The notes under the pieces are model-generated. The model had not been told where the DNA came from, ran no database searches, and saw only the letters and a program-made list of their open reading frames with translations. A stretch of DNA of 64,000 bases from Escherichia coli. GTDB lineage: Bacteria; Pseudomonadota; Gammaproteobacteria; Enterobacterales; Enterobacteriaceae. Below, in pieces: positions 42,052 through 46,915 of this stretch (position 1 is its first letter; each line of letters starts with the position of its first letter). The DNA is taken from NCBI RefSeq assembly GCF_013315695.1, contig NZ_CP054353.1; one strand, given 5' to 3'. The position numbers and the translations under genes were made by a program.

Positions 42052-42483
42052 TTACATCCGCATGGAAACGGCCAGACGGTTAAAACAATTCATCAGCCCG
42101 ATGGCAAACGTTAAGTCGCTGATCTCTGCTGCGCTGAAATGCTCAAGCAAAGGCTGATAAACCTCGTCTTCCGCATGGGTTCTGGCAATTTCGGTTACCG
42201 ATTCCGCCCATGCCAGCGCCGCCCGCTCGCGTTCATCAAAATGATGGCTTACGCGCCAACCTGCCAGGGCGTCCAGTTTGTGCTGTGGCACGCCGGATTT
42301 GCGCAATGCTTTGCTGTGCATCTCCAGACAAAATGCGCAGCCGTTGATTTGCGAGACGCGCAAATAAACTAACTCCATCAACGTGGTATCCAGCGTGCTA
42401 TTTTCCAGTGCCGTTTTGGCCTGCACTAGTGCGTTATACACTGCCGGGCTAAGTTCGTAGTAAGGCTGACGTAATGTAGTCAT
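42052..42483 (-). CDS. AhpD-like / carboxymuconolactone decarboxylase family protein
   Basis: 143-aa ORF containing the AhpD-core motif CxxCxxxH (GCAFCLEMH). Confidence 0.75.
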   Translation of the reverse strand: MTTLRQPYYELSPAVYNALVQAKTALENSTLDTTLMELVYLRVSQINGCAFCLEMHSKALRKSGVPQHKLDALAGWRVSHHFDERERAALAWAESVTEIARTHAEDEVYQPLLEHFSAAEISDLTFAIGLMNCFNRLAVSMRM

Positions 42484-42570
42484 ACAGTTTCTCCTCTTAT
42501 TAACGCCCGCAATGTAGCACTATAATGGACTGCTAAAGAGAGCCATAAATTACCTAAAAAAGCAGACCAT

Positions 42571-43905
42571 ATGCCGCGCTATCAGGATATCGCCCGTCAG
42601 TTAAAAACGGCTATTGAGCAAGGGGAACTGAAACCCGGCGCAAGGCTGCCTTCAAGTCGTACCTGGTCGCAGGAGCTGGGGGTGTCTCGTTCCACTGTCG
42701 AAAATGCGTATGCTGAGCTGGTGGCGCAAGGATGGCTGATCAGGCGGGGACAGGCTGGCACATTTGTCAGTGAGCGGATATATCCGCAACAATCTACTGT
42801 ACAAGTTGTAGCTTTTGCCGGTGAAAGTCAGCAACCGTTGCCATTTCAAATGGGATTACCCGCACTCGATCTCTTTCCGCGAGAGCTGTGGGCGCGGGTG
42901 ATGGGGCGTCGCCTTCGTACCCAGACGCGCTTTGATTTGGCGTTAGGCGATGTTTGCGGTGAGGTGGCGTTGCGCGAGGCAATAGTTGATTACTTACGCG
43001 TTTCACGTGGGATTGATTGTCAGCCAGAGCAGGTCTTTATCACTCACGGTTATGCGGCCTCAATAGCTTTAATTCTGCACGCGCTGGCGAAACCGGGAAA
43101 CGGGATGTGGATAGAAGATCCCGGCTTTCCACTGATTCGCCCGATTGTCACTCGCCATGATGTGGAAATTTTGCCTGTGCCGGTTGATGACAATGGACTG
43201 GATATCACAAGCGGAATACAAAATTATCCTGATGCGCGTTTTGCCCTGATAACACCAGCACACCAAAGTCCGTTGGGTGTGGCGCTCTCTTTAGCGCGCA
43301 GGCATCAGATACTGGAATGGGCAGATCGTAGTCAGGCATGGATTATTGAAGATGATTATGACAGTGAGTTTCGCTATCACGGTAAGCCGTTACCGGCGTT
43401 AAAAAGTCTCGACGCACCGCAGCGGGTAATTTATGCCGGAACATTCAGCAAAGCGCTATTTCCTGCATTGCGCTGTGCGTGGCTGGTGGTGCCGGTGAAG
43501 CAAATTGCACAATTCCGCCACCAGGCGTCACTGGCTCCATGTGCGGTACCTGTTCTATGGCAGAACACACTGGCAGACTTTCTTCGCGAGGGGCATTTCT
43601 GGCGGCATCTGAAGAAAATGCGTCAGCATTATGCTCAACGTCGGCAATGGATTGAGCAAGCGTTGACGCAGCAAGGATTTCAGGTTGTGCCGCAGAAAGG
43701 TGGTATCCAGATGGTGATCAGAATGATAGGCGATGATATTGCCCATGCGCGTAAAGCCAATGCTGCAGGCCTTGCGGTGCAGGCACTTAGCGACTGGCGT
43801 ATCCGTTCAAGTGGGGAAGGTGGATTACTGCTTTCGTTTACTAATATCGTTAACGAAGGTATGGCGCGACAGGTAGCACAACAATTACGTAAAGCCTTAA
43901 GCTAA
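42571..43905 (+). CDS. MocR/GabR-type regulator (GntR wHTH fused to a PLP-dependent aminotransferase-like domain)
   Basis: N-terminal GntR HTH (LPSSRTWSQELGVSRSTVENAYAELV) and aminotransferase-fold C-terminus with the likely PLP lysine in AGTFSKALFP; divergent from the AhpD-like gene. Confidence 0.8.
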   Translation: MPRYQDIARQLKTAIEQGELKPGARLPSSRTWSQELGVSRSTVENAYAELVAQGWLIRRGQAGTFVSERIYPQQSTVQVVAFAGESQQPLPFQMGLPALDLFPRELWARVMGRRLRTQTRFDLALGDVCGEVALREAIVDYLRVSRGIDCQPEQVFITHGYAASIALILHALAKPGNGMWIEDPGFPLIRPIVTRHDVEILPVPVDDNGLDITSGIQNYPDARFALITPAHQSPLGVALSLARRHQILEWADRSQAWIIEDDYDSEFRYHGKPLPALKSLDAPQRVIYAGTFSKALFPALRCAWLVVPVKQIAQFRHQASLAPCAVPVLWQNTLADFLREGHFWRHLKKMRQHYAQRRQWIEQALTQQGFQVVPQKGGIQMVIRMIGDDIAHARKANAAGLAVQALSDWRIRSSGEGGLLLSFTNIVNEGMARQVAQQLRKALS

Positions 43906-44442: not shown

Positions 44443-44787
44443 ATGTATTTACGACCAGACGAGGTGGCGCGCGTACTTGAAAAAGTCGGTTTTACTGTCG
44501 ATGTGGTAACCCAGAAAGCGTATGGTTACCGCCGTGGGGAAAATTATGTCTATGTTAATCGCGAAGCGCGAATGGGACGTACCGCCCTGGTGATTCATCC
44601 AACATTAAAAGAACGTAGTTCAACACTGGCTGAACCCGCTTCCGATATTAAAACTTGCGATCATTACCAGCAATTTCCGCTCTATTTAGCGGGTGAACGT
44701 CATGAGCATTACGGTATCCCACATGGCTTTAGTTCGCGTGTTGCGCTTGAACGTTATTTGAATGGCTTATTTGGCGAAGCCAGTTAA
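44443..44787 (+). CDS. ygaC: Uncharacterised protein YgaC
   Basis: 114-aa ORF divergent from ygaM; synteny. Confidence 0.85.
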
Positions 44788-44823
44788 AGACGCGACTGGC
44801 GATGCCAGTCGCGAAAAGAAGGG

Positions 44824-45273
44824 TCAGGCTTTTACCTGCTGGTAACGGCTGACTTTAAACAGTCGGCGGCAATAATCGAGGAAGTAACCATAAACCGCCC
44901 CCATCAACATCGAAACAACGATGTTTGAACTGACCGCCGCCATAATCTGATGCCAGTCTGCGCCCACCACTAACAAGATCGCCACATACACCGGTGACTG
45001 GAACGTCACATAAGCCATGATATCCGCCAGATTTTTTATCCAGCCCGACGGGCTAACTTTGCGTGCTGCGCGCATAAACAGATCGCGGTACATACCGTAT
45101 GGCCATGCAATTAAGATGTTCACCGGAATCGCTACCAATCTGGAATAAAAAGACTGTTCGAAGCTCATTCCGGAGAGGAAAACTTCAATACACATGTTCA
45201 CGACAGAACAGTAAACAACCATCGCGAACGTATCTGCAACTGCATGACGCAAGCGTGACTGCGGTGAGAACAT
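44824..45273 (-). CDS. alaE: L-alanine exporter AlaE
   Basis: 149-aa membrane ORF; synteny. Confidence 0.88.
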
Positions 45274-45939
45274 GCTAATGCTCCTTAATAAAAGCGTAAT
45301 GGGATGTTAATGGAGGTGAAAGCAGTGGATCTCATTGCCATCTGCATTTTCGCATAGCGTATATCGCTGGCTATGACTAATCAATTAGTGAAAAATTTTT
45401 ATTTAATCTGTTTTTGTAGATAAAATATTCCGTAACGGCGCGTTTTTTGTACATTGTGGATTTTTACATGCCGATATGATTTATTTTTAATTAAATCAAT
45501 TGGATATGTGTTTACCTTTATTTTCACTCATGAAGGTTTGGGGGGAGGTAACGCTATAAGCGTAGAGAATTCGGTGTATGTCGTGACCGGGTCATTTTCA
45601 GCATTTTTTATGCCAGATAACGTACATTGACAGCAGAAAGCACCAGTGAGTGATGTTTTCTTTTATTCTGTTGAGTTGCATTTTTATTCACTTTGGTTTT
45701 GTCAGGCTTGCGGAATTAGCGAGCAGAGAGCGCCGCTCTGTTCACCAATAACCGAAATTACTCATCAAAATGGCTAATATATAATCTTGAAATTATTCTG
45801 AGAGTTTCAGAAAATAACAGCTGAAATAATCTCGTGCAGGACTGTAAATAGATTAAATTTTGTGGAAATATAATAAGTGATCGCTTACACTACGCGACGA
45901 AATACTTTTTTGTTTTGGCGTTAAAAGGTTTTCTTTATT

Positions 45940-46344
45940 ATGTCCGTAATGTTACAAAGTTTAAATAACATTCGCACTCTCCGTGCGATGGCTCGCGAAT
46001 TCTCCATTGACGTTCTTGAAGAAATGCTCGAAAAATTCAGGGTTGTCACTAAAGAAAGACGTGAAGAAGAAGAACAGCAGCAGCGTGAGCTGGCAGAGCG
46101 CCAGGAAAAAATTAGCACCTGGCTGGAGCTGATGAAAGCTGACGGAATTAACCCGGAAGAGTTATTGGGTAATAACTCTGCGGCTGCCCCACGCGCTGGT
46201 AAAAAACGCCAGCCGCGTCCGGCGAAATATAAATTCACCGATGTTAACGGTGAAACTAAAACCTGGACCGGTCAGGGCCGTACACCGAAGCCAATCGCTC
46301 AGGCGCTGGCAGAAGGTAAATCTCTCGACGATTTCCTGATCTAA
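45940..46344 (+). CDS. stpA: H-NS paralog StpA (nucleoid protein, RNA chaperone)
   Basis: 134-aa translation [36 protein letters not shown]... recognised as StpA. Confidence 0.97.
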
Positions 46345-46390
46345 TTACTGAGGCCGGATGCCGCCGCTATGGCGCGTCCGGCGTCTCTTC

Positions 46391-46915
46391 TCAAGCTCGT
46401 TGGTTCCACGGCATCTTATCTAACAACCTTGCCATCCCACAAAAACCGCTAATTCCTGCAAACAGTAACCCGGCACCAACAAAGCCGCTTAATAAGAAGA
46501 AACCGCTATTTACGGTATAACCCAGTATAACGCCGATTAATATTAAACCACCCGCAGCGATCTGCACCTGGCGCATTAACGGCAAGGGTTGAGATTTATT
46601 TACCGCTACTGGTAATCCTGCTTTTTTCCAGCCATCAATCCCATCTTCGAGTAAAAAGATTTCTGCGGGGGCGGCAATCGCTGCTAATTTATCGGCGTTA
46701 TTACTGGTGCGTTTACCTGCCTGGCAGTGGAATATAATTTGCTCGCGACGTGATTTAGGCGGAAGACCTGACTGTTCCAGTACGGATAATGGAGCCAGAT
46801 CTGCTTCAGGAATATGTTCACGAAGATATTCATCAGCGTCACGAATATCGATTAACTTTGCGCCGCGTGCGATTAATTCTTGTGCATCATGCGGCGAAAT
46901 GGTTGTCAAAGCCAT
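46391..46915 (-). CDS. ygaP: Rhodanese-domain inner membrane sulfurtransferase
   Basis: N-terminal rhodanese domain with active-site Cys (FHCQAGKR) plus two C-terminal TM helices. Confidence 0.88.

Follow-up and report, generated by a model that had tools for sequence, protein, structure and literature searches.

Probable composite control region in the long AT-rich spacer between alaE and stpA of Escherichia coli

The outward-facing genes alaE and stpA of Escherichia coli are separated by 666 bp of AT-rich DNA, and the question that this locus raises is whether so long a gap hides an unannotated gene or serves the two genes that it separates. We examined it in a window of 64,000 nucleotides from E. 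coli (contig NZ_CP054353.1 of assembly GCF_013315695.1), to which positions refer unless another genome is named. A preliminary description of this DNA had read the gap as an autoregulatory region bound by H-NS and StpA that carries divergent promoters and leaves room for small RNAs (sRNAs) or small proteins. Our analysis makes it highly probable that the gap acts as a composite region controlling transcription of alaE and stpA and is not a gene; two separate promoter modules and an AT-rich spacer free of sequence constraint explain its length without hidden genes.

The gap is already known as the stpA-alaE control region, an ordinary H-NS-silenced and Lrp-modulated AT-rich spacer. The K-12 stpA-alaE (ygaW) region has reportedly been studied by Free and Dorman in 1997, Ihara in 2017, Kroner in 2019 and Ziegler in 2023. 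As a discovery the present reading has little weight, since the locus ranks with the better-studied Lrp/H-NS targets of E. coli, and it has already served to model how Lrp bridges DNA. The comparative map given below may aid the design of promoter fusions or of Lrp/H-NS footprinting, with 160 bp owned by alaE and 80 bp owned by stpA.

Length and composition of the gap

The gap lies between the alaE ORF (44824..45273, minus strand, 149 amino acids) and the stpA ORF (45940..46344, plus strand, 134 amino acids). Its description as a long, AT-rich intergenic region was accurate in coordinates and composition: it ranks second by length among the 55 inter-feature gaps of the window (median, 87 bp), and the other two gaps above 500 bp lie on either side of tRNA-Ile, in a variable region. 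Its GC content is 35.3% versus 50.7% for the whole window, and equal or greater AT-richness occurs in just 3.1% of the 666-bp sections of the window. The many A/T tracts ascribed to it were also borne out, with 23 runs of at least four A/T bases versus 10.3 ± 2.8 expected from composition-preserving shuffles. The existence and composition of the gap are thus not a chance fluctuation.

Phasing of AA/TT dinucleotides at 10 to 11 bp was not found in the gap (power not above that of shuffles), so its sequence gives no sign of intrinsic curvature. A-tracts in helical phase are common in regulatory spacers controlled by nucleoid-associated proteins (NAPs) but not obligatory. Other traits of a NAP-controlled divergent sigma-70 spacer are present: the gap is non-coding, has a mapped promoter for stpA and a predicted, conserved one for alaE, and is AT-rich with A/T tracts.

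The RefSeq record NZ_CP042896.1 is 100% identical at the locus and has the same gene calls, and strain CFSAN061771 shows 100% identity across the queried 666-bp gap. In MG1655, the counterpart measures 668 bp and is without any annotated feature in the curated record. Across the gap, identity between K-12 and the window amounts to 95.8%, and the two differ by 1-bp indels near 45546 and near 45909. Of 5,426 complete E. coli genomes, 5,419 have the gap, in a single copy. Among E. coli strains, A1.S1.18 and QL57EC are exceptional, one with an IS1 inside the gap and the other without the alaE-proximal half; the spacer thus tolerates natural disruption.

Conservation divides the gap into three parts

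A scan based on AlaE, with one genome per species, returned 80 enterobacterial loci. In all 58 other loci that have alaE and stpA as neighbours, the gap measures 475 to 790 bp with 31 to 43% GC. We derived a conservation profile from a multiple alignment over these 58 loci, with identity measured against the window. The profile is tripartite, with an alaE module at 45350-45510, an stpA core promoter and leader at 45861-45939 and a variable centre between them. Identity to the window is 0.6 to 0.97 in the alaE module, and conservation of the stpA-proximal part is moderate across loci. The features discussed below are the following.

45274..45939, no strand assigned: whole alaE-stpA spacer, 666 bp, 35% GC, non-coding, with outward-facing flanking genes
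45274..45349, minus strand: predicted alaE 5' leader of about 76 nt, its 5' end placed from the predicted -10 element
45356..45384, minus strand: predicted alaE core promoter, -35 TTGATT (45384-45379), 17-nt spacer, -10 TACGCT (45361-45356)
45385..45510, minus strand: conserved alaE upstream regulatory block, 29% GC, identity 0.6 to 0.97 across 58 loci
45511..45700, no strand assigned: variable centre of the spacer, unconstrained, cross-genus identity 0.2 to 0.4
45530..45559, plus strand: 9-codon ATG ORF (MKVWGEVTL, then a stop), without a Shine-Dalgarno (SD) sequence, not a gene
45694..45780, no strand assigned: Escherichia-specific segment, from the alignment, with the GC-rich hairpin AGCAGAGAGCGCCGCTCTGTT (45722-45742)
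45863..45891, plus strand: promoter-like pair TGGAAA (45863-45868), 17 nt, TACACT (45886-45891), overlapping the mapped TATAAT; a candidate
45869..45874, plus strand: stpA -10 hexamer TATAAT of a mapped promoter (PMC10301672), coordinates moved by alignment to K-12
45880..45939, plus strand: stpA 5' leader from the published start to the ATG, 60 nt here and 61 nt in K-12

The same pattern is found within E. coli. Between the window and K-12, the promoter modules are 98 to 100% identical and 45500-45700 is 87 to 91% identical, i.e., the divergence is about 2% in both promoter modules and about 11% in the centre, compared with 5.5% at the 4-fold degenerate sites of six neighbouring genes. Judged by this yardstick, the centre is evolving within E. 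coli at least as fast as neutral sequence, which argues against a sequence-specific product encoded there. Over about 45500-45700, 2,221 of the 5,419 E. coli genomes are only 80 to 90% identical to the allele of the window, itself a minority allele (at least 99% identity in 76 of 5,419 genomes). Neither this allele nor the 1-bp indels relative to K-12 imply a functional difference.

Between genera, the centre is essentially unalignable. The segment 45694-45780 is an alignment gap in 55 to 81% of other genera and is missing from most non-Escherichia genera; its hairpin is specific to E. coli and the closest relative and is not retained even in E. albertii or the cryptic clades. As a terminator, this hairpin was rejected, as it has no T-run and its fold z-score is -0.6 on both strands. 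Length and AT content of the centre are conserved and its sequence is not, which would fit a role in cooperative binding of nucleoid proteins, as scaffold or insulator, and would fit tolerated filler equally well.

The alaE module

The sequence pattern TTGnnn-N16-18-TAnnCT occurs at a constant distance from the alaE ATG in 79 of the 80 enterobacterial loci. We infer that the alaE promoter lies at 45356..45384, with a transcription start near 45349. Within the leader, the SD sequence AGGAG at 45281-45285 is invariant in 20 genera, and the remainder is poorly conserved. Citrobacter amalonaticus is the only locus of the 80 in which the promoter spacing is broken. Its alaE leader (about positions 2860-2990 of locus L013) carries about 130 bp of inserted DNA, with GC-rich palindromes, between promoter and SD sequence, and the insertion end TATACTCGTTATACTTCAGG is reminiscent of an ERIC/IRU repeat. 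A GcvB target in the C/A-rich alaE leader of E. coli was also considered and is unsupported, as the C/A-richness is not kept in other genera.

Upstream of the predicted core promoter, the conserved block contains the near-invariant TAAATAAAAATTTTT at 45405-45391 (about -43 to -57 of the predicted alaE start), the Lrp-consensus-like GGAATATTTTATCTACAAAA at 45433-45411 (about -63 to -85) and ATTGATTT at about -145. Comparison by hand revealed resemblance of the block to the Lrp consensus YAGHAWATTWTDCTR at 11 to 12 of 15 positions, and these particular bases may be where Lrp binds. In 19 species (Kosakonia, Silvania, Superficieibacter and others), stpA is not adjacent to alaE, and the whole alaE upstream block and promoter are kept. 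The alaE-stpA pairing is thus not universal in the family, and retention of the block in these 19 genomes shows that it belongs to alaE.

The stpA module

The published stpA start site, MG1655 2,798,556, has a perfect -10 hexamer TATAAT (PMC10301672). By alignment of the window with K-12, this start corresponds to base 45880, and an SD sequence, AAAGG, is located at 45924-45928. In K-12, the start is silent in the wild type and active in an hns deletion strain, and sigma-70 holoenzyme by itself suffices for its activity in vitro (PMC10301672). Each of the two genes would thus have its own outward-facing promoter, as supposed beforehand, but the promoters are not arranged back to back: the mapped stpA start and the predicted alaE start lie about 530 bp apart.

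The promoter-like pair TGGAAA-17-TACACT, which overlaps the mapped hexamer, is kept in 44 of 59 enterobacterial loci, compared with just 11 of 59 with TATAAT at the position equivalent to the mapped one. Most loci without the pair have TAGATA-N-TATTCT at the same place. Furthermore, a second perfect TATAAT is present on the plus strand at 45780-45785, roughly 100 bp before the mapped stpA start, with a poor -35; it is conserved in Escherichia and reads TACAAT in E. albertii. This hexamer could mark a cryptic, H-NS-silenced start.

The lineage-specific occurrence of the mapped TATAAT and the wide distribution of the overlapping pair are a mildly new observation and hint, at the level of sequence, at an older or a second stpA promoter. 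The Escherichia/Salmonella-type TATAAT promoter may have arisen inside the spacer of the older TGGAAA-17-TACACT. Cryptic, H-NS-silenced starts within the spacer, for instance that at 45780-45785, may likewise give rise to long stpA leaders or non-coding transcripts, which may appear only upon a change in H-NS/StpA or Lrp occupancy. Taken together, an ancestral TGGAAA-17-TACACT promoter (start near 45898) under the mapped TATAAT plus condition-specific cryptic starts is a combination that we regard as rather unlikely.

Regulation by H-NS, StpA and Lrp

Repression of stpA by its own product is said to have been described by Zhang et al. in 1996 and by Sonden and Uhlin in the same year. For H-NS, genomic SELEX demonstrated binding of both RpoD holoenzyme and H-NS to the stpA-alaE spacer and predicted promoters at 45463-45491 (plus strand) and 45527-45499 (minus strand) (PMC3946193). 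That stpA depends on Lrp and is silenced by H-NS has also been summarised (PMC4668568). Of the proposed H-NS/StpA-bound autoregulatory region, the H-NS part is supported by SELEX binding and hns derepression; the StpA autoregulation belongs to the older reports named above, and the best-documented regulator, Lrp, had gone unmentioned.

Lrp regulates both alaE and stpA, and ChIP-seq revealed one Lrp peak in the alaE-stpA spacer and a second inside ygaP (PMC10127797). In minimal medium, Lrp on the spacer forms a bridge to the ygaP site (PMC10127797). Without the ygaP site, stpA is activated by Lrp more than 5-fold less strongly, and purified Lrp bridges a fragment of this DNA in atomic force microscopy (AFM), with bridging abolished by leucine (PMC10127797). 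Leucine dissolves the bridge between spacer and ygaP and leaves an Lrp peak that strongly activates alaE; in minimal medium, Lrp mildly repressed a PalaE-lacZ fusion, which it strongly activated when leucine, isoleucine and valine were supplied (PMC10127797). Upon addition of valine, alaE is among the strongest-induced genes (>300-fold; PMC7066862), and its induction is genetically Lrp-dependent (PMC10127797, PMC12003319).

In the gap itself, a scan with the Lrp consensus gave two matches at no more than three mismatches and a scan with the H-NS nucleation motif gave one, both at chance level. Given these results and the lack of A-tract phasing, binding cannot be placed from sequence alone; occupancy by H-NS and Lrp and their regulatory effect at the spacer are taken from the K-12 literature (PMC3946193, PMC10301672, PMC10127797).

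Alternative explanations of the gap

An independent sRNA gene, trans-acting or antisense, might be transcribed from a promoter-like AT-rich site in the gap. The gap is long, H-NS-bound AT-rich DNA contains cryptic promoters, and sigma-70-like matches are present (TTGAAA-17-GAAAAT at 45787-45815, the TATAAT at 45780-45785 and the SELEX-predicted promoters), but the number of promoter-like sites, three, compares with 2.9 expected from shuffles, and 45511-45860, the one stretch in which an sRNA gene would fit, shows no constraint. When 44500-46700 was scanned by E-value with Rfam 15 (E ≤ 10), the two matches were CRISPR-DR63 (E = 5.5) and cow-rumen-1 (E = 2.7), each well short of its gathering score and thus a chance match. 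At gathering thresholds, 20 related loci gave no match either, so that covariance models revealed nothing above chance at the locus or in its relatives. No intrinsic terminator was found in the gap on either strand, the sole terminator-like site of the scan being within stpA on the opposite strand, and published tables for LB at OD 0.4, LB at OD 2.0 and M63 list no Term-seq 3' end or Rho-termination region in MG1655 2,798,400-2,799,399 (PMC7815308 supplements). The fold z-scores of both leaders and of the hairpin on both strands, -0.6 to -1.0, are within one standard deviation of shuffles, and no conserved RNA sequence or structure was detected in the gap outside the promoter modules. The gap thus resembles enterobacterial intergenic sRNA genes (Rfam) in its location in a long intergenic gap only and differs from them in having no family match, terminator, mapped 3' end, conservation or structure; MG1655 has no sRNA annotated there, and the room seen for unannotated sRNAs is most improbably occupied by one. 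We give even less credence to an unannotated small protein, either the 9-codon ORF or a 20-codon, regulatory upstream ORF in the alaE leader (45347..45285, minus strand). The gap holds 19 ORFs of at least 10 codons, and the 20-codon ATG ORF begins 2 nt past the predicted alaE start, stops on the alaE SD sequence and is kept whole by K-12, Escherichia sp. MOD1 and E. albertii. In three cryptic-clade genomes, however, premature stops interrupt it, and the alaE leader cannot be aligned codon by codon in other genera. Not one of the 19 ORFs stays intact throughout the six other Escherichia genomes, Pfam and NCBIfam scans of the six longest or most plausible gap ORFs gave no match, no SD sequence could be read ahead of the gap ORFs, and MG1655 has no small protein annotated at the locus; the suggested room for small proteins therefore appears empty. 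The 9-codon ORF, previously noted near 45524, does exist, but at 45530..45559, and it is cut to five codons in K-12 by a 1-bp indel, with a frameshift and premature stop in all five other Escherichia genomes as well.

It is also extremely unlikely that the alaE leader acts in cis as an RNA sensor, i.e., an alanine riboswitch or attenuator, behind the strong amino acid induction. The more than 300-fold response to valine or alanine excess (PMC7066862) would suit such a device, and a short motif, AAA(A/C)GC(T/A)CT, recurs some 45 nt ahead of the alaE ATG. Yet a consensus fold of 20 leaders has only five invariant pairs, at the SD sequence, with no compensatory changes and -2.9 kcal/mol, the single-sequence fold of the alaE leader has a z-score of -1.0, and neither a terminator nor a leader 3' end in Term-seq was found; the Lrp dependence of the induction speaks against a sensor on genetic grounds. 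For the stpA leader, the consensus fold over 17 genera has no predicted pairs (single-sequence z-score, -0.6), and covarying pairs were found in neither the 20 alaE leaders nor the 17 stpA leaders. That the gap centre is what decay has left of a former gene or mobile element, without present function, is very unlikely, albeit compatible with our preferred explanation of both promoter modules. It would agree with the near-neutral or faster evolution of the centre, the Escherichia-only insertion at 45694-45780, the tolerance of the spacer for an IS1 element in one strain and for the absence of its left half in another, and the ERIC-like insertion in the C. amalonaticus leader. On the other hand, Pfam and NCBIfam revealed no protein-family signal in any frame, the gap occurs once per genome and so is not a repeat, and its length and AT-richness, unlike its sequence, are maintained in about 20 genera, which suggests some selection on bulk properties.

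Proposed mode of action and related systems

In the composite control region that we favour, the alaE module of about 240 bp would comprise a weak predicted sigma-70 promoter, an AT-rich conserved block and an unstructured 76-nt leader. Lrp most likely sits on the conserved upstream block; the weak promoter would depend on bound Lrp, and alanine or leucine would alter the Lrp oligomer and thereby cause strong activation. The stpA module would consist of the mapped TATAAT promoter with its start at 45880 and an unstructured 60-nt leader. This promoter, with its strong -10, would be held off by filaments of H-NS (and of StpA, according to the older literature) nucleating on A/T-tract-rich DNA and be switched on by Lrp, which in minimal medium bridges the gap and the ygaP site. 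Between the modules, the A/T-tract-rich centre of about 350 bp would be free in sequence, with length and AT-richness kept, and would hold the promoters about 530 bp apart, possibly as the substrate for spreading H-NS/StpA filaments and Lrp oligomers. A function of the centre beyond spacing is conjectural, and its near-neutral evolution would fit pure filler equally.

The closest counterpart is the K-12 stpA-alaE region, which is the same locus; the stpA start, the -10, the SD sequences and the conserved alaE block are all present here. AT-richness, A/T tracts, H-NS binding and derepression upon hns deletion are shared with proU (proVWX, located in the same window) and ilvIH, which exemplify AT-rich promoter regions silenced by H-NS and countersilenced by Lrp or another activator. 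With proU, the gap also shares a distant auxiliary site and looping, the site being the downstream regulatory element in proU and the ygaP site here. It differs from proU and ilvIH in lacking helically phased A-tracts, in a bridge formed by Lrp rather than H-NS, and in being shared by two outward-facing genes with opposite leucine responses.

Neighbouring features

A PhoB ChIP site lies inside alaE, at codons 5 to 10 (45243-45260, minus strand; AGTCACGCTTGCGTCATG; MG1655 2,799,166), and is intragenic and transcriptionally inert (PMC10294691). Further away, at 42052-43905, the window has a gene of the carboxymuconolactone decarboxylase family and a MocR-like pdxR between nrdH and ygaM; K-12 is without both genes, and nrdH directly follows ygaM there.
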